NCBI GenBank assembly: GCA_963743875.1
Contig: CAVURM010000002.1
Coordinates: forward strand, 84,740-108,739
Source of the DNA: an uncultured Solirubrobacterales bacterium
GTDB taxonomy: Bacteria > Actinomycetota > Thermoleophilia > Solirubrobacterales > 70-9
Reading direction: 5' to 3'
DNA: 24,000 nt
A program made the position numbers and the translations under genes. Under the pieces are notes generated by a model. That model had not been told where the DNA came from and made no database searches. It saw only the letters and a program-made list of their open reading frames with translations. Below are positions 3,495-19,914 of the stretch, piece after piece (the stretch's first letter is position 1; every line of letters begins with the position of its first letter).

Positions 3495-4328
3495 TTGCCG
3501 GCTCGAAAGTCATTGATCGCAGCGGGGGCCCTGTCGGCCTGCCTGGCGGCGGTGGGGGCCTCGGTCGCAGTGGCGCCCCCGGCTTCGTCTCACGGAACCG
3601 ATCGCCATCCGGTGGCCAAGGACAACCCGTGCGCCACTCCGAAGATCCGCAAGGAGCGCGGCCTGCTCTGCCCCGACCTGGCGATGTCGAGGCCCGCCGA
3701 TCTCTACGGAGACAAGGATGAGGGCGTCCGCGTGTTGCGTGCCACGAGCTCGATCAACAACATCGGCCGAGGCGCCGCCGAGCTTCACGGCAGGCGGACC
3801 GGCCGGCTGAGCATGAAGGCGGAGCAGCGCGTCCACAAGAAGGGTGGCGGCCTGGCGCGCTTCGGCACCCACGCGGAGCTTCGCTTCAAGTCGATTCCCG
3901 GACAGGGCCGGTATTGGAAGTTCGACAACGCCGCCCGCTTCGAGCTTTGGAGCCTCGATCGCGACGGCCGCAGAAAGCGCTTGGTGACCACCGGGGAGAA
4001 GCAGGTCTACTGCCTCCGCGACCTCGTACACACAAGGCCCGGCATCCCACACTCGCCGTCGGGTGAGGTCTATCCGGGATGCAGCCAGAACCCGAACCGC
4101 CGCCACGTGACGCTCGGGACCAGCGTCGGCTGGTCCGACATCTACCCCGCGAGCTACTACGAGCAGTACGTGAAGCTCAACAGGATCCGCGGTCGAGGCT
4201 GCTACTCGCTCGTCCACATAGCCGACCCGAGGAACAAGATCCTCGAGCTCGATGAGAGGAACAACAGTGCGTCGAGGGACGTCTACCTGACCGCTCACGG
4301 CCGCTACCGGCCCGGGCACGATTGCTGA
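3495..4328 (+). CDS. Secreted lysyl-oxidase-like domain protein that lacks the copper-ligand His triad
   Basis: TTG start preceded by GGAG with a 6-nt spacer. Signal peptide MPARKSLIAAGALSACLAAVGASVAVA. The C-terminal ~200 aa follow the block order of the LOX catalytic domain as I recall it (see finding). The alignment was done by eye only. Confidence 0.7.
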   Translation: MPARKSLIAAGALSACLAAVGASVAVAPPASSHGTDRHPVAKDNPCATPKIRKERGLLCPDLAMSRPADLYGDKDEGVRVLRATSSINNIGRGAAELHGRRTGRLSMKAEQRVHKKGGGLARFGTHAELRFKSIPGQGRYWKFDNAARFELWSLDRDGRRKRLVTTGEKQVYCLRDLVHTRPGIPHSPSGEVYPGCSQNPNRRHVTLGTSVGWSDIYPASYYEQYVKLNRIRGRGCYSLVHIADPRNKILELDERNNSASRDVYLTAHGRYRPGHDC

Positions 4329-8101: not shown

Positions 8102-8707
8102 TCAGTCGCTGATGCCGGTCACGTCGCCGATCTCGACGGCGACGATGTTCGCCGAGTTGACCCGGGTTCCTGAGGCGGGATTCGTCTTCGAGCACTGAAG
8201 CTGGAGCGCCTGCCCGTCGGTCACGTCGAAGAGGGCCGTGAGCGTGAAGTTCTCCGGCTCCGCGGAGGGATTCACGTACTGCGTTCGCGTGGTCGCCGTG
8301 GAGCCGATCCCTCCGGCGCCGTTGATCAGGCGGCAGTCGACATTGCTGTCGAGTGCGTTGACGGTTTGGACCTGGACCGTGGCGGTGGCGAAGTATGCGC
8401 CCGGCGGGACGTCGAGGCTGACGACCGTCGAGCCGAAGAGGCTCGAGCTGAAGCTGTCGTAATTGACCGAGCCGCTCGCCTGGAACCCCTGAATCGGACC
8501 GGGCAGGACCCCGCTCGCCAAGTCCTCGCCCTTCAGCGTCGCGTTCTTCACCTTCGCGCTGGTCACGGCGTCCTTCTTGAGCTGCTTCGTGCCGACGCTG
8601 TGCTTCCCGATCTTGCCGGCCGCGTAGGCACCCCCGCCGAGGAGGACGACGAAGGCGAGCAGCGTGACCATCACGTTCGCGTACGTCAGCTTTGGACGGA
8701 TTCTCAT
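8102..8707 (-). CDS. Membrane-anchored hypothetical protein
   Basis: 201 aa with an N-terminal anchor (YANVMVTLLAFVVLLGGGAYAAG), followed by KIGKHSVGTKQLKKDAVTSAKVKNATLKGEDL and a beta-rich domain. Coding bias is good. Family not recognised. Confidence 0.75.
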   Translation of the reverse strand: MRIRPKLTYANVMVTLLAFVVLLGGGAYAAGKIGKHSVGTKQLKKDAVTSAKVKNATLKGEDLASGVLPGPIQGFQASGSVNYDSFSSSLFGSTVVSLDVPPGAYFATATVQVQTVNALDSNVDCRLINGAGGIGSTATTRTQYVNPSAEPENFTLTALFDVTDGQALQLQCSKTNPASGTRVNSANIVAVEIGDVTGISD

Positions 8708-8788
8708 GGCGAGTCTGCCGAGTGTAGTCGCACTTCGGGGCCGGGCGTGCGCCTTGACAATCCTTGCGCCGGAGACGAAGGTGACGAC

Positions 8789-9542
8789 ATGGCGGCGGAG
8801 CTGATCATCGACCCCCGATTCTGCGGCCCCGCCGGCTACGGAAACGGCGGCTACTGCTGCGGCATCTTCGCGAATGAGCTGGAGGGCCCGGCCGAGGTGA
8901 CGCTGCGGGCACCCGTCCAGCTGGACAAGTCCTACGTTGCGGTGCGCGACGGGGAGGGCCTGACGATTCAGGCCGATGACGGCTCGCTCGTCGCCCAGGT
9001 GGCTCCGGTCGGTCCGCTCGATGATCTCGAGCCCCCGGTCCGGCCCTCGGCCGAGCGAGGCTCGCGCCGCCGCCGAGGGCTCACCGTTCAGGACCGACGC
9101 CCATCCGTACCCCGGCTGCTTCGTCTGTGGTCCCGAACACCCCCACGGCCTGCAGATCCAGGTCGGAGTCGATTCCGGGTCACGAGACTGCTGCGGCCGC
9201 CGCCTTCACCCCTGACGATTCCCTGCCGTCGGTCGACGGGGAGCTGCGGCCCGAACTGGTCTGGGCCGCCCTCGACTGCCCGAGCTTCGTGCCGAGCCTG
9301 TGGTCCGATGATCCGGTCCTGCATGGGGCGGCTCACCGCGGAGCTGCTCGCCCCCGTCCCGATCGGCGAAGAGGTGGTCGCGGTTGCCTGGGAGACCGGG
9401 TCGCGAGGGGCGGAAGCTTCATTCGGCGAGCGCGCTGATCGATTCCCACGGCGAGCTGCTGGCGCGGGCACGCGCCCTCTGGTTCCGCGTCCCCGCCAAG
9501 CCTCGGCAGCCCGGCGATGCGGGCGACGGCGATGCGAGATAG
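8789..9542 (+). pseudogene. Hotdog-fold (PaaI-like) thioesterase family gene broken by four +1 frame shifts; either a true pseudogene or sequence error
   Basis: A coherent protein emerges only by hopping frames at ~9056, 9177-9180, 9322 and 9407-9410: MAAELIIDPRFCGPAGYGNGGYCCGIF..PSAE|EARAAAEGSPFRTDAHPYPGCFVCGPEHPHGLQIQVGVDSG|HETAAAAAFTPDDSLPSVDGELRPELVWAALDCPSFVPSLWSDDPVL|MGRLTAELLAPVPIGEEVVAVAWETGSRG|RKLHSASALIDSHGELLARARALWFRVP..*. CFVCGP.NPHGL is the hallmark of this thioesterase family. Confidence 0.7.
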
Positions 9543-9554
9543 GGTCGTCTCGCC

Positions 9555-10144
9555 ATGCGAAAGCTGCAGAGCCAGGGCGTCCACCACATCACGATCACGG
9601 GAGCCGATCGGCAGACCTCGATCGACTTCTGGGAGGGCCTGCTCGGCATGCCGTTCGTGTTCGAGCAGCCGAACCTCGACAACGAGGCCGAGAGCCATCT
9701 CTACTTCGATCCCGGCGACGGCCGGCTGATCACGATCTTCACCAACGAGGAGCGCGAGGGCAACCCGGAGCGGACCCCGACTGGACCCCGGATGCGTCCA
9801 CCACGTGGCGATCTCCGTCTCGCAGGCGACCTTCAACCAGGCGGTCGAGCGGCTCGACGAGCGCGGGATCGAGCACAGCGAGGTCAAGGACCGGGGGTTC
9901 ATGGACTCGATCTACTTCAAGGACCCGCTCGGCCTGCTGATCGAGCTCGCCTCCTATCGCTTCGAGCCCCCGGCAGGCACACTCCCACGCCGACGTATTG
10001 CTCGAGGCTCACAGGATCCGGATCGAGCGCGGCGACTACAACATCGCCCAGATCCACCTCGCCGATGCGATCGAGATCCTCGTCACCCGATCGCAGGCGT
10101 CCCTGTCTGAGGATCGGGCGCCGAAGGATCCATACGGATCCTGA
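9555..10144 (+). pseudogene. VOC (glyoxalase/bleomycin-resistance/dioxygenase) family gene with two +1 frame shifts
   Basis: Frame 0 reads MRKLQSQGVHHITITGADRQTSIDFWEGLLGMPFVFEQPNLDNEAESHLYFDPGDGRLITIFTNEEREGNPERTPTGP. After the CCCC run at 9786-9789 it continues in the next frame as GCVHHVAISVSQATFNQAVERLDERGIEHSEVKDRGFMDSIYFKDPLGLLIELASYRFEPPAG. After ~9976-9981 it continues in the third frame as HSHADVLLEAHRIRIERGDYNIAQIHLADAIEIL..PYGS* (stop 10142-10144). Confidence 0.8.
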
Positions 10145-10187
10145 CGGGTCTGACTGGAAGGCCGTCGTCGGGGTAGGGAAAGGAACC

Positions 10188-10214
10188 TGTACAACTCAGA
10201 CGATGAGTTGTACA
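10188..10214. promoter_or_regulatory. Perfect 11-bp inverted repeat TGTACAACTCA-gacga-TGAGTTGTACA; likely antitoxin operator overlapping a TACAAT -10-like box
   Basis: Read directly from the sequence. The right arm ends 8 nt before the ATG of the YefM-type antitoxin. TACAAT (10211-10216) overlaps the right arm. The region is a locally AT-richer island in GC-rich DNA. Confidence 0.6.
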
Positions 10215-10222
10215 ATAGGGCC

Positions 10223-10471
10223 ATGGCGACTTTCAGTATCAGCAAGGCGCGGGAAGAACTGGCCGACGCTGTCGACCTCTGCCGGACCGAGGCCGTGTTC
10301 CTCGAGCGCCGTGGCGAGCCGGCGGCCGTCCTTGTCAGTCCCGAGCGTTACGAAGAGATGGTGGACGCACTTGAGGACGCCGAGGACGTCGCTGCCTTCG
10401 ATGCGGCGATGGACGAAGAGGGCCCGAACATCCCCTGGCGAGAGGTCAAGGCCGACCTCGGCTGGAGTTGA
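10223..10471 (+). CDS. Type II antitoxin, Phd/YefM family
   Basis: MATFSISKAREELADAVDLCRTEAVFLERRGEPAAVLVSPERYEEMVDALEDAEDVAAFDAAM.. is the canonical Phd/YefM fold signature. The stop overlaps the toxin start (TTGA at 10468-10471). I preferred ATG 10223 over the track start at 10208. Confidence 0.85.
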   Translation: MATFSISKAREELADAVDLCRTEAVFLERRGEPAAVLVSPERYEEMVDALEDAEDVAAFDAAMDEEGPNIPWREVKADLGWS

Positions 10472-10728
10472 CCAGGTACCGGATCGAGCTCAGGCCGGCC
10501 GCAGTTCGTGCGCTGCGCAAGCTCGATCCTCCGATGCGCCGTCGGTTGCAGGGAGCCATCGCGCTACTTGCGGAGGATCCGCGCCCACCGGCGGCACGTG
10601 CGTTGAAGGGGAGGCCCGGCCTCCGGGTCAGGGTCGGTGATTACCGAATCATCTACACGGTGAAAGATGACGTCTTATTGGTGATCGTCGTCACGCTCGG
10701 CCATCGGCGGGAGATCTATCGGCGCTGA
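10468..10728 (+). CDS. Type II toxin, RelE/ParE family
   Basis: 86 aa. IELRPAAVRALRKLDPPMRRRLQGAIALLAEDPRPPAARALKGRPGLRVRVGDYRIIYTVKDDVLLVIVVTLGHRREIYR is a textbook RelE/YoeB-superfamily pattern. It is translationally coupled to the antitoxin. Confidence 0.85.
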   Translation: MTRYRIELRPAAVRALRKLDPPMRRRLQGAIALLAEDPRPPAARALKGRPGLRVRVGDYRIIYTVKDDVLLVIVVTLGHRREIYRR

Positions 10729-11264
10729 GGCTTGACGCGGTAATGAAGATGAACCATGCCGCCGTCGAAACGCCGTTCATCCAGCAGCTCCAGTTGGATG
10801 CGAACACCTTCGGGAAGGGACCGGCTTCCGCCGCCCACGACGATGGGCGCGACGAACTGGTGGCACTCGTCGACCAGGCGGGCCTTGAGCGCCTGGACGG
10901 CGAGGTTGGGACCTCCCACGGTGATGTCGCGTTCCGCTGCCTCCTTCATCGCCCGAACCGCCCTGGGATCGAAGTCCCGCTCGATACGCGTTCTGGCGCT
11001 GGCAGGCGTCTCGAGCGTCCTGGAGTACACGACCTTGTCGGCCGCCTGCCAGATCTCGGCGAAGTCCCGGACGAACGGCGGCTGGTCGGCGATCGTGTGT
11101 GCGGTCTCCCAGTAGACCATCGTCTCGTACATCCGGCGTCCATAGAGGTAGGTGCCGACCGGCCGCTCGAGGTCGTTGAAGAAGGTATGCACCTCCTCGT
11201 CCGGCGCAGCCCAGTCGAAGTTGTCGTCCTCGTCAGCGACGTAGCCGTCGAGGGACGTGATCAC
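10716..11264 (-). CDS. Dihydrofolate reductase family protein (RibD C-terminal domain)
   Basis: ITSLDGYVADEDDNFDWAAPDEEVH..YLYGRRMYETMVYWE..ITVGGPNLAVQALKARLVDECHQFVAPIVVGGG are typical RibD_C blocks. The first canonical start is GTG 11264, but conserved N-terminal residues continue upstream in frame (see finding). The 3' end overlaps the convergent toxin gene by 13 nt. Confidence 0.8.
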   Translation of the reverse strand: MITSLDGYVADEDDNFDWAAPDEEVHTFFNDLERPVGTYLYGRRMYETMVYWETAHTIADQPPFVRDFAEIWQAADKVVYSRTLETPASARTRIERDFDPRAVRAMKEAAERDITVGGPNLAVQALKARLVDECHQFVAPIVVGGGSRSLPEGVRIQLELLDERRFDGGMVHLHYRVKPQRR

Positions 11265-11341
11265 CGAGTAGATCAGCTTCGCGACGACGAGCCCCGATCC
11301 GGGCGGGTGGATTGCATCCCGCGATAAACCCGGGACATCAT

Positions 11342-12274
11342 TCAGCCGAACCTGCCGCGCTCGAGTGCATCGGCCAGCGCTTCGGGGTCGTAGCCGGGAA
11401 GCTCGCCGGTGGTCTCGGTGCCCTCGACGTAGGCCGCCATCGCCCGTTCGGACGGCTCGGTGACCAGCGCCGACATGAACTCGGCCCGCTCGAGTCGCAG
11501 CCCTGCCGGCAGGGTCTGGGCGCCGCCGATGTAGACGGCTCGCTTGACGCCGGCGATTCCCGCCTTCGGCCGACGCGCGAGGCGGGTCGCTACCTCCAGT
11601 GCGCGGTCGAGCAACTGCCCTGCGGGGACGACTTCGTCAACCAGGCCCAGATCGGCGGCCTGCTCCGGGTCCAACGGGCCGCCGTCGAGGCAGAGATGAA
11701 GTGCTCTTCCGGTGCCGAGCAGCCGTGTCAATCGCTGCGTGCCGCCGCCGCCGGGAGGAAAGCCGAACAGCACCTCGGGCTGACCGATCGAGAATGGCCC
11801 CGCCGCCATCAGCCGCATATCGCAGGCGAGGGCCAACTCGCAGCCGCCGCCCATGGCCGAACCGTTGATCGCCGCAACGATCACCGCGCCGCAGGTGTTG
11901 AAGCGCAGCAGGATCTCGCCGAAGCGCTCGGCCGCCGACAACCCCGCCGCCGGAGTGCGCTCGAGCGCGCTGCGACCGCCGGGCAGTCGCCGGACCGCGC
12001 CGACCGCACCGAGTGAGGCGCGGGCAGCCGACGGACCGACGTTGGGGGCCTGCCTCGCGCCGTCGAGCAGCTCAGCGATGTCGTAGTGGGCGACGAATCG
12101 CTCGGCGTGCTCACCGGTGATGACGATCCCGGTCACCGCCTCGTCGGACTCGGCCCGTTCGACGAGTTGCTCGAGGCCGGCGACGATCCCGTCGTCCATC
12201 AGTCCGTGCGGCGGATTGGAGATGGTCGCCAGAAGCACCCCCTCGCCGCCTTGCTCGACTCGCACCTCACCCAT
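11342..12274 (-). CDS. Enoyl-CoA hydratase/isomerase (crotonase) family protein
   Basis: 310 aa with VIVAAINGSAMGGGCELALACDMRLMA..IGQPEVLFGFPPGGGGTQRLTRLLG, which is the crotonase oxyanion-hole and active-site region. It is divergent from the heliorhodopsin gene. Confidence 0.9.
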   Translation of the reverse strand: MGEVRVEQGGEGVLLATISNPPHGLMDDGIVAGLEQLVERAESDEAVTGIVITGEHAERFVAHYDIAELLDGARQAPNVGPSAARASLGAVGAVRRLPGGRSALERTPAAGLSAAERFGEILLRFNTCGAVIVAAINGSAMGGGCELALACDMRLMAAGPFSIGQPEVLFGFPPGGGGTQRLTRLLGTGRALHLCLDGGPLDPEQAADLGLVDEVVPAGQLLDRALEVATRLARRPKAGIAGVKRAVYIGGAQTLPAGLRLERAEFMSALVTEPSERAMAAYVEGTETTGELPGYDPEALADALERGRFG

Positions 12275-12362
12275 CGGTCCGAGGCTATCGCGCCGGTGCC
12301 CTACCCGGTCGGTCGGAGAACCGCTCGAAAGCCGAAGGTGGCCGGTGCGTAGGGTGGGCCGA

Positions 12363-13139
12363 GTGCAGGACGCCGATTCGAATCAGATCCGACCGGAAGA
12401 GGCAGGCAGGCTGCGTCGCTACAACGTCGCGATGGGCATCCTGCACCTGATCCAGGGGCTCGCAATCCTGGTTCTTTCGAACGGATTCTCCCTTCCGGTC
12501 ACAGCCACCTTCGCCAATAGCCAGCCGGGTGGCCCGGTCGATCCGAACAGGCTCTCGGAGTTGTTCACAGTTCCCCTCGGGCCGGCGGTGGCTGCGTTCC
12601 TGCTGATCTCGGCCCTCGCACACCTGATCGTCGCGTCCCCGTTTGGGTTCCCGGGCTACATCTCCGAACTCGAGCATCAGCGCAACCGGTTCCGCTGGGT
12701 CGAGTACGCGTTCTCGGCCTCGTTGATGATCGTTCTCATCGCGATGCTCGCCGGCATCTCCGACATTGTCGCCCTAATCGGGCTATTCGCGGTCAACGCC
12801 TGCATGATCATGTTCGGCTGGCTGATGGAAACCGGCAGTCGCCCCGGGGCTGACGCCGACTGGACGCCTTTTTGGATGGGCTGCTTTGCCGGCGTTGTGC
12901 CCTGGGCGTCGATCACGATCTATCTGATCGGTGCCGGCTCTGACGTTCCCGGGTTCGTCTACGTGATCTTCGCGACCCTCTTCGTCGCCTTCAACAGCTT
13001 CGCGCTGAACCAGTACCTGCAGTACAGGCGGATCGGGCCCTGGCGCGATTACCTATTCGGGGAGCGCGTCTACATCGCCCTCAGCCTGACGGCGAAGAGC
13101 CTCCTCGCCTGGCAGGTATTCGCCAACACGCTCGTCTGA
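12363..13139 (+). CDS. Heliorhodopsin (seven-helix retinal protein with inverted membrane topology)
   Basis: 258 aa counted from GTG 12363. The track ORF opens at 12117, but that start would overlap the crotonase gene. There are seven hydrophobic helices. Family blocks are AMGILHLIQ, ISALAHLIV, NRFRWVEYAFSASLMIVLIA (Glu114), VNACMIMFGWLME, PFWMGCFAGVVPW, PGFVYVIF..FNSFALNQYLQ and GERVYIALSLTAKSLLAWQVF (Lys245, codon 13095-13097). From memory this is a close, colinear match to heliorhodopsin 48C12. TAGGGT (12350-12355) lies 7 nt upstream of the GTG and could be either a -10 box (leaderless mRNA) or part of an AGGGTGGG Shine-Dalgarno sequence. Confidence 0.9.
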   Translation: MQDADSNQIRPEEAGRLRRYNVAMGILHLIQGLAILVLSNGFSLPVTATFANSQPGGPVDPNRLSELFTVPLGPAVAAFLLISALAHLIVASPFGFPGYISELEHQRNRFRWVEYAFSASLMIVLIAMLAGISDIVALIGLFAVNACMIMFGWLMETGSRPGADADWTPFWMGCFAGVVPWASITIYLIGAGSDVPGFVYVIFATLFVAFNSFALNQYLQYRRIGPWRDYLFGERVYIALSLTAKSLLAWQVFANTLV

Positions 13140-13209: not shown

Positions 13210-14785
13210 ATGAAACGGTGGCTGCTAGCGGGAACGCTCTGGGGGGTGTTGGTCATGACCGCCGCCGCGCCCGCCAATGGCGCGATTGATTCCCGGAGCT
13301 TCCCGAAGGATTTCCTCTGGGGCACCGCGTCAGCCGGGTTTCAGTCCGAGGCCGGTGGGTCTCCCGCGAGGGTCGATCGCCGCAGTGACTGGTTTGCCTT
13401 CACGACCGATCCCGAGCTGATCGATGACGGGATCGTCAGCGGCGACCGGGTCGCCGACGGTCCCGGGTTCCTCCACACCTGGCGCGGCGACCTCGACCGG
13501 GCGCGCACGGACCTCTCCAACAACGCGATCCGCCTCGGGATCGAGTGGAGCCGGGTCTTCCCGCGCTCGACGGCCGGCGTGGAGACTGGCAAGCGGGTCT
13601 CCGGGAAGGAGTTGCGGAGGCTGGATCGGGTCGCCGATCAGTCGGCGGTCCGCCGCTACGGCCGGATCCTCCGGGGCGCCCGCGAGCGCGGCCTGCGAGT
13701 GATGCTGACCCTGAACCACTTCACGCTGCCGATCTGGGTCCACGATCCGCAGGCGGTGCGTGCCGCCTTCGCCGGTCGTGGGGCCGACGATCCGGTCCCG
13801 GAGGACCTGCGTCGGGCGGGCTGGCTCGACCGCTCGACCGTCGACGAGTTCCGCAAGTACGCGGCCTATGCAGCCTGGAAGTTCCGCGATCAGGTCAACC
13901 TGTGGGCGACGCTGAACGAGCCGCTGGTCACCGTTTCGCAGGGCTTCGTCTCGATCCCGGGCGTCACCGGGGTGAAGGCGCCGGGCGTGCTCTCCTACCC
14001 GGCGGCGCTGGCCGCGGTCGAGAACCTCGGTCTCGCCAACGCCGCCGCCTATGACGCGATCCACGCCCGTGACGACCGTGCGCGGGTGGGCTTCGTCCAC
14101 AACATGCTCGACTGGCGAGCGTTCAATCCCGCCAGCCCCGCCGACGAGACCGCGGCGAGCCACGCCGACCAGATCCTCAACCGCACGTACCTCGAGATCG
14201 CGATCAACGGTTGGTACGACCTCGACGCCGACGGGGTCAAGGATCCCGGCGAGGTTCGCAAGCAGCTTCGCGACAAGGCTGACTTCGTCGGCCTCAATCA
14301 CTACTCACCCGCCCGCGCCCAGTCGCTCGGATTCCCCGTCTCGGCCACGATCCCGACCTTCGATTTCGTCCCCTACATCACCTATCAGGGCACGGGCAAC
14401 CCGAGTGGCGGCCCCTGCCCGACCACCTGCACCGACTTCGGTTGGCAGATCGACCCATCGGGTCTCCGCAACGTCGTCGAGGAGGCCGCCGGCTACGGCA
14501 AGCCGATCTACGTGACCGAGAACGGCATCGACGACGCCGAGGACGACCAGCGGCGTGAGTACCTGCGCGGTTACCTCGAGGCCCTTCAGGGCGCGATCGC
14601 AGGCGGCGCCGACGTCCGTGGCTACTTCTACTGGTCGCTCGATCGACAACTACGAGTGGGCCGAGGGATTCGCCGCGAGCTTCGGCCTCTACGGCTTCGA
14701 CCCCGAGACGCTGGAGCGCACGATGCGGCCGAGCGCGAAGCTCTATCGGCGGATCGCGCGTACCGGGGACGTACCCGCCGGCTAG
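13210..14785 (+). pseudogene. Secreted glycoside hydrolase family 1 beta-glucosidase with a single +1 frame break at 14641; either authentic or a sequence error
   Basis: Signal peptide MKRWLLAGTLWGVLVMTAAAPANG. GH1 blocks present are FLWGTASAGFQSEAG, the acid/base TLNEP, the nucleophile YVTENG, and YFYWSL|IDNYEWAEGF. The last motif is split: TGG TCG CTC g ATC GAC AAC TAC GAG TGG. The downstream frame (track ORF 14555..14785) ends in ..LYRRIARTGDVPAG*. Confidence 0.9.
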
Positions 14786-14798
14786 AAAGCGAGCTCCG

Positions 14799-15984
14799 CT
14801 ATCCCTTCAGATTGACCTTGAAGGACTGCGACGTGCCGTTGATCGTGTTGGTCAGCTTCAGGCTGGCCTTCACCTTGCCCTCCTTCTTGAGCAGGCGCTT
14901 GCCGTTGCGGGTCAGCTTGACCGTCACCTTGCCCTTGCTCGCGGGCTGGACGGTGTACTTGCCCTTCGCGATCTTGGTGGTCTTCTTCGGCGCGCGCCGA
15001 TACGCGCTTGTTGCCCCCGGTTGATGCGGTGATCAGCGCGTTCCCCACGCACGGATCGGTCGCCCCGGCCGGAAGCTGACAGGACACCTTGAAGGTGCCG
15101 TTGCTTCCCTTGACCTTGATCTTGTTGCCGGCCGGACCGGCGCCCACCGCCCCTTCGAAGAGGTCCTGCGGGCGACAGCTGGAGGGCGGCTCGGCGCTGA
15201 ACCTCAGGTTGTCGACGAACACGGCCGAGTCGTAGATCGCGTCGCCGAGATCGAAGATCGACAGGTAGATCGAATGGGGGCCCGGGGTGACCGGGGTCTT
15301 TGCCGTCAGCGTCCCGGTCGCGGCGTCGTAGGTCGTCCCGGCCGCTTCGGCTTCGCTGACGATGGTCGGGCCGAGTGTGTCGACGGCAACCTGATCGCCG
15401 TAGCCGGCCGCGAAGTCCCCGGGGGCGGAGACCTCGTAGCTGGGAGGCCCAGACTCAAAGGTCAGGGTGCTCGACCAAGTGGTGCTGTCGAGCTCGGCGA
15501 TGAATGTGTCGTTGACTCCCTTGTCGACGTACTCCGGAAACTCCTCCGAGAGGAACTTGTAGTCGAGTTGCAGGCAACTCTGCCCGTCCGGGACAATGAA
15601 TTCCGCCTTCAGGGTCACCGGGTCGAAGGCATCGCCTCGAGTGGGATCGAGGAGGCCGTACGCCGAGCCGCTGTTTCCAGCACTGTTGGGAGCGTCGGCG
15701 ATCGTGACATCGCCTGAGCTGAGTAGACCGAATGATCCACCGGCGGTCGGGAAACCCCCGAGCGGCGCATTGGCGACGCCGTACTGCGCCGCGTTCGAAA
15801 TGAGCGACCCACTCCCCGCTGAGGCTTCGAGCGACTGGGCGACCGCGTTCGGAGGCGACTGGGTGACCGCCGCGCTGGCGACGCTCGCCGGGCCCATTGC
15901 AGCAAGAGCGGTGACGGTTAGGGCGGCACAGAGCGCAAGCCGGCCGACCACCGGTCGGTGGGTCGAGTTCGATGGGCTTCCCAT
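14799..15984 (-). pseudogene. Secreted protein resembling the choice-of-anchor-L domain family, with a Lys-rich beta C-terminal tail and one +1 frame break near 14989-14999
   Basis: Start preceded by GAGAGGAA. Signal peptide ..RLALCAALTVTALAAMGPASVASA. The core has LDYKFLSEEFPEYVDKGVNDTFIAELD and LSIFDLGDAIYDSAVFVDNLRF. After ..ITASTGGNKRVSAR the track frame becomes QGDGQ-type junk. The adjacent frame reads PKKTTKIAKGKYTVQPASKGKVTVKLTRNGKRLLKKEGKVKASLKLTNTINGTSQSFKVNLKG* (stop 14799-14801). The family assignment is from memory of the motif style only. Confidence 0.7.
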
Positions 15985-16146
15985 ACCGGGTTCCTCTCTC
16001 TAGTGGTTCCGCGCCGACGTGCTCGTCGCCCGCGATCCGAACAATCGAACCGAAGCTACTTCACGTGAGCCGTGATGAACAGCAGCCTGGACAAAGGTCC
16101 TAGCTCACGGCATGCGAACGCCCCACCGCCCGTACCGTCGGGGTGA

Positions 16147-17376
16147 TCAGGAGAGCTTGACCGGGAGCGTCTTGAGCTGGTTGAGGAACTGGGTCACCGC
16201 GGGGCGGGCCTCGCCGTTGCGGGTCATGTCCGGGTAGCGCCTCAGCGTCTCCTCGAAGAGGACCTTGAGCTCGAGCCGGGCGAGCGCGGTGCCGAGGCAG
16301 AAATGGCGGCCGCCGGCACCGAAGGCCTGGTGTTCGGGATTGCGGTGGATGTCGAAGCGTTCTGCATCCTCGTAGACGGCCTCGTCGCGGTTGCTCGAGA
16401 CGTACCACATCAGGACCTTGTCGCCCTCGGCGATCGGCTGGCCGTGGACCTCGGTGTCGGTCGTCGCCGTGCGCCGGAAGTTGCCGAAGGCGGGGAACAT
16501 CCGCAGGCACTCCTCGATCGCGCCCGGAATCAGCGACGGGTCCTCGACCAGCTCGCGCATCTGATCGGGATGGTCGAGCAGCGCGTTCATGCCGCTGGTG
16601 AACGTGGCCTTGGTCGAGTCGTTTCCGGCCGCAACCAGCAGGAAGAACCCCATCACGATCTCGTGGTCGGCGAGGGTCTCGCCGTCGATCTCGGCGTGGA
16701 CGAGGACGCTGGTCAGATCGTTGGTCGGGTTCTCGCGACGTGCGTCGATCATCTCCTGCGAGCGTCGGAAGATCTCGGGGAAATCCTCGGCGAGGACCTT
16801 CTCGAGTCCGCCCGGGGCGAGATCCTCGTCGCCCACGCCCAGCGTCGTGTTCATCAGGGTCGCCCAGGCCTTGTCGTCCTTCTCCTCGATGCCCATGAAG
16901 CTGCCGATCACCCGCGAGACGACGGGCTGGGCGATGTCTTCGACGATGTCGCAGCTCTCGCGCCCCTCGAGCCGGTCGAGGACCGTATTGGTGATCGTGC
17001 GGATCCCGTCCTCGTGCATCGCGATCCGCTTCGGGGTGAACCCACGCTGAAACAGAGCCTTGATCCGATCGTGCTTGGGCGGATCCATGGCGATGAACAT
17101 CGAGGTCATCAGCTCGAGCGGGATCGCGTGGGTGAGCGCCATGCAGCCGCCGCGCTCGGAGGAGAAGGTGCGCCAGTCCCGGCTCACCGCATGTACGTCT
17201 TCGGCCGTGACGACGGACCAGATGCCGGCCTCATCGGGGTACTCGTTGATCTCCGACCACTGCACCGGGCATTCGTGGCGCAGCCGCTTGAAGAGCTCGT
17301 GCGGGGGTCCGTTCTCCCAGTGCTCGCGGTCGACGATGTCGATCTGATCGAGGCTTTGATCCATCTCGGTGGCCAT
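16147..17376 (-). CDS. Cytochrome P450 monooxygenase
   Basis: 409 aa from ATG 17376. It has the I-helix LLVAAGNDSTK, the ExxR (EECLR), and the heme-thiolate loop FGAGGRHFCLGTALAR. The 250 codons upstream in the track ORF (16147..18126) are Arg/Gly/Pro junk that overlaps the GNAT gene. Confidence 0.92.
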   Translation of the reverse strand: MATEMDQSLDQIDIVDREHWENGPPHELFKRLRHECPVQWSEINEYPDEAGIWSVVTAEDVHAVSRDWRTFSSERGGCMALTHAIPLELMTSMFIAMDPPKHDRIKALFQRGFTPKRIAMHEDGIRTITNTVLDRLEGRESCDIVEDIAQPVVSRVIGSFMGIEEKDDKAWATLMNTTLGVGDEDLAPGGLEKVLAEDFPEIFRRSQEMIDARRENPTNDLTSVLVHAEIDGETLADHEIVMGFFLLVAAGNDSTKATFTSGMNALLDHPDQMRELVEDPSLIPGAIEECLRMFPAFGNFRRTATTDTEVHGQPIAEGDKVLMWYVSSNRDEAVYEDAERFDIHRNPEHQAFGAGGRHFCLGTALARLELKVLFEETLRRYPDMTRNGEARPAVTQFLNQLKTLPVKLS

Positions 17377-17450
17377 GTTTCGCTTCGTCTCCAGGTCGGC
17401 GTTGCGGTGCCGCCGAAGCCTACTGGCCAGCCAGCCAGATTCTTGGGCCG

Positions 17451-18209
17451 CTACTCGGGCCAGCGCGTCAGCTCCAGCGTGGTGAGGACGGGCCGGAAGC
17501 CAAGGCGGGCGTAGAGCTTCTTCGGCCGATCCTCGTCGTCGGCGACGATCCAGATATCCCCGACCGCGCCGGCGGCGCCGATGGCCGCCTTCGTCAGGGC
17601 CGTGCCGAGGCCGCGTCCGCGCTCGTCGGAATTGACGAATACCTCCGTGATCTCGGCCCCGTCGCCGTTCCGCTCCAGCTGTGCGAATGCCACCGGGTTC
17701 TCGTCCTTGACGACGGCGAGCACCCTCACGTCCAGCCGGGCCGCCACCTCGGCTGCCTGCCGGTGGTAGTCGCCGGGATCCTGGTCTGGGGATTCCTCCT
17801 GAAACCAGGCCACCCGCAGGTCGTGGACGGAGTCGTAGGGAACCTCCTCGACGGCGATCGCCTCCCCCGACGGCGCCGGGGCTTCGTGGCGCATCAGGAC
17901 CAGCCGCAGCGACCTCCAGCCGATCGCCTCGAAACCGGCCCGCAGCGGCTCGGCGATCGAGATGAGCTCGAAGTCCAGACGCCGGTGGCTGAGTCCTTCG
18001 AGCGCCTCGTCGGCGAACCTGGCCACTTCCTCCACGCTCAACCCCGGATCCCCTTCGACCCTGACCACGTTGAAGTCGTGGTAGCCGGGGTACTCCGTCG
18101 CCCGGACCACGGTCCCATGCGCCCACGACTCAACCCGGTCGCAGATCGCGGCATGGCGGGAGTGGTACCAGTCGAGCCCGCGGGCGGTCGCAGAGTCTGG
18201 GTCGGCCAT
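17451..18209 (-). CDS. GNAT family N-acetyltransferase (two-lobed, ~252 aa)
   Basis: The C-terminal lobe has the acetyl-CoA loop VFVNSDERGRGLGTALTKAAI and ..KKLYARLGFRPV. I chose ATG 18209 (MADPDSATARG..) rather than the track start at 18323. Confidence 0.75.
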   Translation of the reverse strand: MADPDSATARGLDWYHSRHAAICDRVESWAHGTVVRATEYPGYHDFNVVRVEGDPGLSVEEVARFADEALEGLSHRRLDFELISIAEPLRAGFEAIGWRSLRLVLMRHEAPAPSGEAIAVEEVPYDSVHDLRVAWFQEESPDQDPGDYHRQAAEVAARLDVRVLAVVKDENPVAFAQLERNGDGAEITEVFVNSDERGRGLGTALTKAAIGAAGAVGDIWIVADDEDRPKKLYARLGFRPVLTTLELTRWPE

Positions 18210-18304
18210 CGATGCCCAGATTACGTCTGAGGAGCCGGTTGACGAAGGTCGGAGCGGCACTGATCGCGATCTCAACCGTTGGCGGGGGTTGGAACAATCT
18301 CCGA

Positions 18305-18790
18305 GTGAGCTCGCCTCCGCCAAGGGTCCGCCGCGCAGATCCGACTGACGCCGGGACCATCGCCCGTCTCCTGCATCGGTTCAACACCGAATTCGATGAG
18401 CCGACGCCTTCGGAGGAGGCTCTTGCCGAGCGCATGGCTGAGCTGATGGCCGCAGGGGATACGTCGGTGCTGCTGACTGAACCCGGGCACGACGGCATCG
18501 CCGTCCTCCGGTTTCGCCCGGCGATCTGGAGCAGCGGGCTCGAGTGTTACCTGGCCGAGCTCTACGTCGTGCCCGAGCGGCGCGGGCAGGGCCTCGGGCG
18601 GGCCTTGATGGAGGTCAGCATCGATCACGCGCGCAGCCGCGGGGCCGATTACATGGACCTCGGCACCTCCGAGGACGATGTGGCCGCCCGCCGGCTCTAT
18701 GAGAGCTTGGGATTCACCAACACCGAGGGGACGCCCTCGGGCCCCGTGATGCTCTTCTACGAGCGCGGACTTGGGCTCGATCGCTCGTGA
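18305..18790 (+). CDS. GNAT family N-acetyltransferase
   Basis: RVRRADPTDAGTIARLLHRFNTEF.., the acetyl-CoA loop LYVVPERRGQGLGRALMEVSI, and ARRLYESLGF. The start is tentatively GTG 18305, which sits just upstream of the first conserved GNAT residues. It is divergent from the other GNAT across a 95-bp spacer. Confidence 0.8.
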   Translation: MSSPPPRVRRADPTDAGTIARLLHRFNTEFDEPTPSEEALAERMAELMAAGDTSVLLTEPGHDGIAVLRFRPAIWSSGLECYLAELYVVPERRGQGLGRALMEVSIDHARSRGADYMDLGTSEDDVAARRLYESLGFTNTEGTPSGPVMLFYERGLGLDRS

Positions 18791-18864: not shown

Positions 18865-19914
18865 ATGGCCTTGATCGACCTCTATCGAAGCACCGGAGCG
18901 GACGTGCCTTGGGGTGATCAGCTGCGAGCGCATCCCGGCGTGCGAATGGAGGGCTACTTCTGGCGCTTCACCGCCCCCCGCGATGACGGTCGCGTCCTGA
19001 TCGCGCTCTGCGGGGTCAACAGGGCCGACGACGGCAGCTGGTCCACCCTGGGACTGGGGGCGCACCCGGTCGGCCTTCTGCGAGCGGTGGAGCACCCCGA
19101 GGGCCGCGCCGACCCCGACGAGCTCGGTGCAAGGGCGGGAACCGCCTTCGAAGGGTCGCGCGATCACCTGCGGGTCGACCTTGGCGACGACGCCCAACTC
19201 GACGTAGGCGTTATGGCGCCGGTTCCCTGGGGGCGACGCATGTTCGGCGGATCGAGCTACTTCCAGTCGGTCCCCGCACTCAACCAGTACTGGCATCCGT
19301 GGCTGCTCGGCGGAACCGCGCAGGGAGTCGCGAACGTGGGCGGGGAGCCATGGGAGATCGACGGCTGGCAGGTCTACGCGGAGAAGAACTGGGGTCGGGG
19401 CGGGTTTCCGGACTCGTGGTGGTGGGGGCAGGCCCAGGGGTTCGCCGAGCGCGAGGCCTGCGTCGCCTTCGCCGGCGGGGAGATCAAGTCGGGGCCGCTG
19501 CGGACCGAGGTCACGGCGGTGGTGGTGAAGCTGCCCGACGGCCGGCTCCTGCGCCTCGGCAATCCCGGTACGTCACCCGTGGAGGCGCAGGTTGCCGATG
19601 AGCGCTGGTCGTTGCGGGGTGGAGGTTCCAGGTGGCGGGTGGAGATCGAGGGCGAGGCTCCGCGCGGGGCCTCGCACGTGCTGCCCGTGCCGTTGCCGCG
19701 CGAGCGCCGGAACGTGGCCGGCGCCCTCGAGCACCTCGGCGGCACGATGCGGGTCGTCGTTCGCTCGCGCAGAGGCGGCGTCGTCTGGCGCGGCGAATCG
19801 CAGCTGGCCGCACTGGAGCACGGGGGCCTCGAGCGCGCCGCACGGGAAGCTGAGCGCCGCGGCTTCCCGGGCGCTTCGGCGGTCGCTCCGATGGGCGCGA
19901 CCGCCGGCGACTGA
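18865..19914 (+). CDS. Tocopherol cyclase-like family protein
   Basis: 349 aa. MEGYFWRF.., NQYWHPW.., and YAEKNWGRGGFPDSWWWGQAQGF match the signature region of the tocopherol cyclase (VTE1) family as I remember it (EKNWG..FP..W.W.Q.N.F). Confidence 0.7.
   Translation: MALIDLYRSTGADVPWGDQLRAHPGVRMEGYFWRFTAPRDDGRVLIALCGVNRADDGSWSTLGLGAHPVGLLRAVEHPEGRADPDELGARAGTAFEGSRDHLRVDLGDDAQLDVGVMAPVPWGRRMFGGSSYFQSVPALNQYWHPWLLGGTAQGVANVGGEPWEIDGWQVYAEKNWGRGGFPDSWWWGQAQGFAEREACVAFAGGEIKSGPLRTEVTAVVVKLPDGRLLRLGNPGTSPVEAQVADERWSLRGGGSRWRVEIEGEAPRGASHVLPVPLPRERRNVAGALEHLGGTMRVVVRSRRGGVVWRGESQLAALEHGGLERAAREAERRGFPGASAVAPMGATAGD

Follow-up and report, generated by a model that had tools for sequence, protein, structure and literature searches.

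Background

Heliorhodopsins (HeRs), a family of retinal-binding and light-sensing membrane proteins, are characterized by a single glutamate counterion in the third transmembrane helix (TM3) and by a serine in place of Asp212 of type-1 rhodopsins. They bind all-trans-retinal, absorb visible light, pass through a photocycle that takes seconds and have their N-terminus in the cytoplasm. The closest relative with solved structure of the protein described here is 48C12, coming from an actinobacterial fosmid of Lake Kinneret (PDB IDs: 6su3, 6su4 and 6uh3). Its membrane topology is established, and its study provides the features by which subfamily 1, the group of 48C12, can be recognized: a hydrophobic barrier made of L12, L96 and L227, Gln213, Asn138, the loop between TM1 and TM2 (AB loop) and the dimer contacts (Kovalev et al. 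2020, PMC7049168). Other described members include TaHeR of a Thermoplasmatales archaeon (6is6, 7u55 and 7clj) and the viral V2HeR3, which belongs to subfamily 2. The subject of this study is a HeR gene at positions 12363-13139 of a DNA stretch from an uncultured Solirubrobacterales bacterium (contig CAVURM010000002.1, positions 84,740 to 108,739); the whole stretch of 24,000 nucleotides (nt) that was analyzed is called the window below.

Partner proteins are known for several HeRs: glutamine synthetase for AbHeR, photolyase for TfHeR and the ABC exporter OmrDE for OcHeR (PMC9529153, PMC9769723, PMC11109279). In a survey of HeR genes, an adjacent gene of the same operon accompanied 173 of 448 HeR genes, and ten recurrent operon partners, with no glycosidases among them, were listed (PMC11109279). 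A strict operon criterion, with a gap below 10 bp, was used in the work that describes the glutaredoxin/GSHPx group (PMC8612252). The recurrent classes thus comprise the synthetases of glutamine and of NAD+, photolyase, MerR, TerC, ABC transporter, SDR, α/β hydrolase, DUF2177, DUF2238 and glutaredoxin (PMC11109279, PMC8612252). Solirubrobacterales are members of Thermoleophilia within Actinomycetota and represent a monoderm lineage.

We propose that the gene in the window codes for a functional, canonical HeR of the 48C12 subfamily, acting as a light sensor that transports no ions. We assign to this reading a probability of roughly 0.85.

A complete heliorhodopsin gene

Membership of the gene product in the HeR family is practically certain. 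The Pfam family PF18761 (Heliorhodopsin) is matched over model positions 1-242 of 242 with E=1.6e-101 and 339 bits (cut-off 26.7), and the NCBIfam equivalog NF038020 ("heliorhodopsin HeR") reaches 326.5 bits (cut-off 100), for which reason NCBI's annotation pipeline PGAP would name the gene automatically. A preliminary description, made from the sequence alone, had recognized the gene as HeR and named a profile search as the way to check it; the family models are indeed matched in full length and far above their curated cut-offs. Among solved structures, the three entries of 48C12 come first by sequence (E about 3e-74), before the Thermoplasmatales HeR (E=2e-64) and Cv06, a eukaryotic protein (E=8e-43).

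Of 8,000 candidates that were examined, more than 7,000 are homologues scoring E<1e-20. A look-up by exact sequence gave no record for either the 258-aa or the 264-aa version of the protein. The closest homologues share 93%, then 88%, 84% and 80% identity with the query, after which a broad plateau at 60-68% is formed by sequences from Acidimicrobiia, other Actinomycetota and Chloroflexota (Limnocylindria). The sole close locus in species-representative genomes, L060, comes from a metagenome-assembled genome (MAG) labelled uncultured Solirubrobacterales; its HeR protein is 93% identical to the query, its DNA is 88-90% identical to that of the window, and synteny is partly kept. A monoderm host, the type expected for HeRs, is thus indicated by the nearest genome. 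The finding brings no taxonomic novelty: Thermoleophilia are already known to carry HeRs, which Bulzu et al. have assigned to a cluster.

The gene consists of 258 codons and a TGA stop at 13137-13139. The open reading frame (ORF) had been correctly delimited in the preliminary description, all peptide strings quoted there are found in the translation, and the codon positions given for Glu114 and Lys245 are right. The frame is open upstream as far as 12117 and contains further in-frame GTG codons at 12345 and 12354. The GTG at 12363 is nevertheless the best-supported candidate for the start and the other two are judged less likely, because the GTG at 12345 precedes a conserved hexamer described below and the GTG at 12354 is replaced by GTT in L060. 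The homologue with 88% identity is annotated from the codon equivalent to 12363; against this choice stands the gene call of another homologue (P0001), which begins at the GTG equivalent to 12345.

Pairwise ratios of nonsynonymous to synonymous substitutions (dN/dS, Nei-Gojobori method) were calculated for the four relatives with DNA available. The value is 0.08 against L060 and 0.15-0.22 against the relatives with 80-84% identity, and the HeR gene is therefore under purifying selection. Together with the complete ORF and the retention of family-invariant positions, this bears out the earlier claim of an intact gene, which is noteworthy given the single-base frameshifts in two or more neighbouring genes of the window.

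Conservation of functional residues

The key-residue list of 48C12, comprising 48 positions (Kovalev et al. 2020, PMC7049168), was mapped onto the query by pairwise alignment. Identical residues occupy 43 of the 48 positions. The five differences (48C12 to query) are S112 to A119, S201 to T205, R91 to G98, K218 to R222 and K222 to P226; alanine at the position of S112 is the majority residue among close relatives. Lys245, Glu114, His28 and His87 pair with K241, E107, H23 and H80 of 48C12, exactly as anticipated in the preliminary description, and in TaHeR the counterpart of Glu114 is precisely the residue that was changed in the E108D entry 7clj. The stabilizing serines S237, S111 and S76 of 48C12 are preserved as S241, S118 and S83. 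The query has a single counterion, Glu114, accompanied by serine (Ser241) at the position of type-1 Asp212.

Agreement with 48C12 is complete in the polar cytoplasmic cavity and the histidine pair, where 13 of 13 positions are identical. Besides the two histidines, these are N21, N108, R111, Y115, Y99, E234, E156, Q220, Y230, W112 and Q217, corresponding to N16, N101, R104, Y108, Y92, E230, E149, Q216, Y226, W105 and Q213 of 48C12. The hydrophobic barrier is likewise identical (L12, L96 and L227 of 48C12 are L17, L103 and L231 of the query), and so are the dimer contacts, with Tyr187 and Asp134 in place of Y179 and D127. Shared residues of the retinal pocket are F72, M115, M141, I142, F206 and N207 in 48C12 numbering, and N138, P172 and P40 are identical too, the last being the family-conserved proline found as Pro45 in the query.

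Since L17, L103, L231, Q217, N145, P45, Y187 and D134 all stand as in 48C12, the protein is, as far as its sequence tells, a canonical member of subfamily 1, ordinary among thousands; this placement was made by residue conservation and about 55% identity to 48C12. Certain residues are specific for the clade formed by the query and its four closest relatives, namely I35, I82, A86, F94, A116, F117, A143, C147, M150, M172, V201, A204, T205, S212 and T256. These substitutions are conservative and located in membrane segments, and the comparison of the clade showed no change at a functional position of the list. Natural colour tuning of HeRs has been assigned to the positions of Q213 and A240 of 48C12 (PMC7807009). 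The query has the same residues there, Gln217 and Ala244, and because of this match its absorption maximum is expected near that of 48C12, at about 550 nm.

Predicted structure and membrane topology

An AlphaFold2 model built from 65 homologues reached a mean pLDDT of 93.4 and a pTM of 0.87. It consists of seven long helices, a β-hairpin between TM1 and TM2 and a short helix in the loop between TM2 and TM3 (BC loop), as reported for 48C12. In a Foldseek search of this model against PDB, the first match was 48C12 (6su3_A) with a TM-score of 0.92, a root-mean-square deviation of 1.7 Å and E=4e-21. TaHeR followed with TM-scores of 0.86-0.88, and type-1 rhodopsins reached only 0.5-0.66 with E>=1e-4. 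Seven helices, a long TM1-TM2 loop and colinearity with 48C12 had all been deduced from the sequence before, and both the model and the structural match agree with them.

The distribution of charges supports an inverted topology, with the N-terminus predicted to lie in cytoplasm. Of 14 arginines and lysines in total, 12 belong to the N-terminal face, where they sit in the N-terminal tail, in the TM2-3, TM4-5 and TM6-7 loops or in adjoining helix ends; Arg63 lies on the opposite face and Lys245 is buried. This positive-inside count of 12 versus 1, like the colinearity with 48C12, fits the N-in orientation that is a defining trait of the family and was predicted in the preliminary description, and the arginine-rich regions which it pointed out on the N-terminal face are present. 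The computational checks suggested there all turned out as predicted. Neutral or acidic character, which it further ascribed to the alternate loops, does not hold for all of them, since Arg63 is placed in the TM1-TM2 loop. Arg63 (codon 12549-12551) is a part of a DPxRL motif, is conserved in the clade and represents the only positive charge on the predicted extracellular face.

Promoter-like elements

A scan for sigma-70 consensus promoters in the window found nothing; the pattern described here came from direct inspection. The block GGTGCGTAGGGT, followed by 7 nt and the GTG start, is conserved in the window, in L060, in another relative with 93% identity (L083) and in the relative with 88% identity (L082). 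Further upstream of this block, the sequence of L082 is unrelated to that of the window. A TANNNT hexamer is present at −13/−14 of 5 of 16 gene starts in the window, those of HeR, the GH1 β-glycosidase, the enoyl-CoA hydratase, a zincin-like protein and a TetR regulator (starts at 12363, 13210, 12274 on the reverse strand, 7516, and 23703 on the reverse strand). With 35 TANNNT hexamers in 48,000 positions of both strands, the probability of such coincidence is about 3e-11, calculated post hoc; the effect is large.

In leaderless mRNAs of actinobacteria, a −10 element is found at this spacing and transcription begins at the start codon. By analogy, the hexamer TAGGGT probably acts as a −10 promoter of leaderless type for the HeR gene, and its spacing favours 12363 as the true start. 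The whole pattern is in keeping with leaderless transcription being widespread in this organism. The GH1 gene possesses a conserved hexamer TAGCCT of its own, 8 nt before the ATG, and independent leaderless transcription of GH1 is therefore likely; the hydratase hexamer is TAGCCT as well. The sequences thus suggest that HeR and GH1 each have their own promoter. Some read-through from HeR into GH1 may still take place, given that no terminator-like structure separates them: a search of the intergenic region for a terminator or structured RNA gave no significant fold (z=0.65 versus shuffled sequences), and the only terminator-like match lies within the HeR coding region, at the level expected from shuffles.

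Genomic neighbourhood

The HeR gene is flanked by a divergent enoyl-CoA hydratase gene and by the GH1 glycosidase gene (Table 1); no operon with any of the recurrent partner classes was found at these flanks. The adjacency of GH1 is kept in the two relatives with 93% identity, L060 and L083. It is lost in L082, where a convergent unrelated gene follows HeR, and also in the relatives with 80-84% identity, L080 and L081, where a convergent aldo-keto reductase gene takes this place. When 20 window proteins were compared by tblastn with 79 related loci, neighbours were shared only with L060 and none with the other 78. Even L060 differs upstream of HeR: an additional gene of ~1 kb, methyltransferase-like, is inserted between hydratase and HeR, and the RibD_C gene is missing from this place.

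A Pfam census of HeR neighbours in related loci covered 68 downstream and 52 upstream genes. The downstream neighbours included AAA_28 in 13 of 68 cases and ThrRS in 4, with GH1 in a single one, L060 itself. TrkA_N accounted for 5 of 52 upstream genes; CopC was encountered 4 times, TerC twice and ECH (enoyl-CoA hydratase) once. All these recurrences are lineage-bound. No conserved partner can be proposed from context, as neither tblastn nor the census shows a recurring window neighbour. The preliminary description had regarded each new genomic context of HeR as informative. This expectation failed here, where the flanks vary beyond near-identical genomes and match no published partner class.

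The AAA_28 gene of the census codes for ~201 amino acids (aa) and is located downstream of HeR in convergent orientation, mostly in MAGs of Limnocylindria and Chloroflexia (loci including L003, L005, L006, L008, L009, L013, L014, L015, L021 and L045). It falls outside the ten published neighbour classes and may reflect synteny among related genomes.

Table 1. Features of the window discussed in the text, with window coordinates
Feature	Position	Strand	Remarks
Heliorhodopsin coding sequence	12363..13139	+	258 aa plus stop, GTG start; ORF with translation, family profiles
Putative −10 hexamer TAGGGT	12350..12355	+	7 nt upstream of GTG 12363
His28 codon CAC	12444..12446	+	48C12 His23; invariant in 65 homologues
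Long TM1-TM2 (AB) loop, predicted β-hairpin	12489..12575	+	strands 43-49 and 64-71; DSSP on AlphaFold2 model
His87 codon CAC	12621..12623	+	48C12 His80; alignment with 48C12, alignment of homologues
Glu114 codon GAG	12702..12704	+	counterion position (48C12 Glu107, TaHeR Glu108); invariant in homologues
Lys245 codon AAG	13095..13097	+	retinal Schiff-base lysine position (48C12 Lys241); invariant in 65 homologues
RibD_C protein	10716-11264		
Enoyl-CoA hydratase (ECH)	11342-12274	−	upstream of HeR, divergent
GH1 β-glycosidase	13210-14784 (corrected frame)	+	70 nt downstream of HeR; N-terminal signal peptide
Choice-of-anchor L domain protein	14782-15984	−	
P450-containing ORF	16147-18126	−	659 aa; P450 domain only in residues 451-631; overlaps GNAT gene
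GNAT acetyltransferase	17451-18323		one of two in the window
Tocopherol-cyclase-like protein	18865-19914	+	PF14249, E=9e-18; also in L060; uncommon for actinobacterium

The signal peptide of the GH1 enzyme is unusual for GH1. Relative to L060, its gene contains an extra A in TCGCTCGATCGAC near 14642. Owing to this frameshift, ~47 codons at the end of the gene, with the conserved DNYEW segment among them, fall out of frame and the listed ORF continues to 15024; in the corrected frame, the stop codon lies at 14782-14784. The GH1 gene of L060 carries a different single-base indel, situated in the signal-peptide region (L060 ~10890-10900, equal to window ~13266), and has a late ORF start. The presence of two different indels in two assemblies suggests that they are assembly (homopolymer or long-read) errors rather than signs of gene decay. 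In the choice-of-anchor L gene on the opposite strand, the frame with high GC content at third codon positions (GC3) switches near 14930 and the listed ORF goes on in a low-GC3 frame, which suggests another frameshift near the 3' end of this gene. The call of the P450-containing ORF is probably too long or merges frames.

Further genes of the window code for a class-III aminotransferase fragment, a large PQQ-type β-propeller, zincin-like and glyoxalase-domain proteins, thioredoxin, an acyltransferase, archease, an SRPBCC protein and a TetR regulator. A UPF0014/ABC ATPase pair, 9 kb from HeR on the other strand, is unrelated to HeR partners. Searches of the window with Pfam and NCBIfam found no photolyase, glutamine synthetase, histidine kinase or MerR regulator, and scans for Rfam families and tRNAs were empty. 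Three ORFs, 466-1842 (−), 3495-4328 (+) and 8102-9205 (−), have coding-like GC3 of 0.85-0.86 and no Pfam or NCBIfam match. In comparison with L060, whose genome is about 89% identical in DNA, micro-rearrangements are seen at 10144-11338, 12290-12330 and 14799-18186, with the blocks 14799-16095 and 16147-18186 in swapped order.

Proposed function and alternative explanations

By analogy with characterized homologues, Lys245 would bind all-trans-retinal covalently, with Glu114 serving as its counterion, and the pigment would absorb green light near the wavelength given above. Its photocycle would be slow, and the Schiff-base proton would be released into the internal cavity of histidines and water. 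No ions would be moved, because the proton goes to this cavity and not across the membrane. As a light sensor, the protein would then act on a partner protein by way of its cytoplasmic surface and alter the activity of that partner. The gene itself appears to be transcribed alone from its leaderless-type promoter. The role of a non-transporting photosensor or regulator is probable, at a lower degree than the assignment to the family; the naming of any specific partner would very likely be wrong.

Several points weigh against this proposal. The support for this particular protein comes from computation alone. Genes for synthesis of retinal or carotenoids (crt, blh) were not found in the window with Pfam and NCBIfam, and HeR has no adjacent gene from the partner classes in the literature (glutamine synthetase, photolyase, ABC exporter, MerR, TerC, SDR and others). 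The output of HeRs is generally debated, so the step from photopigment to sensor or regulator rests on a small number of characterized homologues (PMC9529153, PMC9769723, PMC11109279). Lastly, 48C12 is strictly negative on its outside (PMC7049168), and Arg63 on the predicted outer face of the query does not conform to this.

Other explanations have to be considered next to this one. HeR could be mainly a light harvester instead of a signalling protein, its second antenna being a xanthophyll acquired from outside, as put forward in a 2025 preprint on "two-antenna" HeRs (10.1101/2025.11.27.691015). The motif given there consists of aromatic residues at positions 162 and 206 of 48C12, non-bulky residues at 166 and 210 and Gly169. 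The query retains these residues of the lateral fenestration proposed to hold the carotenoid, with the aromatic pair F170/F210, the small C174/A214, Gly177 and also Asn211 (N207 of 48C12), and its host lineage is monoderm. The motif, however, is not distinctive of this gene, because 91% of all HeRs carry it. The preprint builds its proposal on docking and sequence motifs, without biochemical demonstration for any bacterial HeR (10.1101/2025.11.27.691015), no route is known by which energy harvested by a protein without ion transport could be converted, and carotenoid genes are those not found in the window. We regard harvesting as the main role as unlikely, if the most tenable of the alternatives. 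Light-driven or light-gated transport of protons, in the manner of the viral V2HeR3, is the least credible of them. Some HeRs do transport protons (PMC9448325), and the Schiff-base lysine and counterion are present in the query, but the residues Glu191, Trp195 and Glu205 of V2HeR3, equivalent to L202, F206 and Q216 of 48C12 (PMC9448325), are replaced by Leu206, Phe210 and Gln220. The query thus differs from the proton-transporting viral type and goes with the 48C12 subfamily, in which the extracellular half is hydrophobic and no transport has been measured.

The position of the GH1 gene, on the same strand and 70 nt behind HeR, offers the idea of a light-regulated pair for sugar scavenging, whose members would be co-transcribed or would physically interact. 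The gap lacks a terminator-like hairpin and folds no better than shuffled sequences, and the pair recurs in L060 and L083. We consider it very unlikely all the same: the adjacency is gone in L082, L080 and L081, GH1 stands behind HeR in only that one locus of the census, and its own conserved hexamer makes independent transcription likely. Moreover, the GH1 enzyme is predicted to be secreted, and the HeR partners characterized so far bind on the cytoplasmic side (PMC9529153, PMC11109279); the ten published neighbour classes contain no glycosidases (PMC11109279), and the gap exceeds the 10 bp of the strict operon criterion (PMC8612252). A HeR-GH1 operon was accordingly rejected as the principal explanation, on account of the adjacency not kept in L080-L082 and the separate −10-like hexamers. 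Still less likely is a recent recruitment of HeR beside the secreted GH1, by which light would modulate extracellular sugar scavenging through the AB loop (Arg63) or through co-expression; if true, it would mean a class of partner and an outer-face interaction undescribed for any HeR. To a similarly slight degree we believe in a silent or decaying passenger gene, lacking for example a supply of chromophore, in a region that accumulates frameshifts. Single-base frameshifts in neighbouring genes, the retinal pathway not seen in the window and a context which differs even between genomes of 90% identity would agree with such a state. They are opposed by the low dN/dS values against both the closest and the more distant relatives, by the family-invariant positions, which are all kept, and by the conserved promoter-like block; the differing GH1 frameshifts in two genomes point to indel errors of assembly. 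A canonical HeR with a sensory role remains our preferred reading.

Comparison with known heliorhodopsins

The locus adds one more canonical subfamily-1 HeR, this time from a soil actinobacterium of the Thermoleophilia type, and its value lies mainly in correct annotation. It also provides a useful negative: the neighbourhood holds no functional signal and HeR looks monocistronic. Flanks of HeR change between genomes whose HeRs are 88-93% identical, in agreement with surveys where most HeR genes stand alone. As the neighbourhood is uninformative, the locus brings the question of HeR output no closer to a test. The protein carries A119, C147 and M150 near the retinal pocket and, if expressed, would serve as one more natural variant in comparative spectroscopy.

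With partnered HeRs (AbHeR, TfHeR and OcHeR), the query shares the family and presumably the nature of a slow-cycling photoreceptor that would modulate its partner via the cytoplasmic surface. Their partner genes lie in the same operon, in contrast to the query, which has none adjacent or elsewhere in the window. V2HeR3 has the fold, lysine and counterion in common with the query, which is devoid of the Glu191/Trp195 gate and Glu205 of the viral protein and possesses the carotenoid-site motif, which is missing from subfamily 2. TaHeR, archaeal and about 45% identical, is colinear with the query over 16-257 with the counterion and lysine aligned, and differs by methionine at the position of Gln217, one of the natural colour-tuning sites. 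The nearest of all is 48C12, with about 55% of 239 aligned residues identical and with shared Schiff-base lysine, counterion, serine triad, histidine pair, cavity, fenestration, position of the proline bulge and dimer contacts. In comparison with 48C12, the AB loop of the query is longer by 2 residues and contains Arg63, its EF loop is shorter by 4 residues, and the clade substitutions A86, F94, F117, C147, M150 and M172 are conservative. The hosts differ as well: 48C12 belongs to a freshwater actinobacterium and the query to a soil bacterium resembling Solirubrobacterales.

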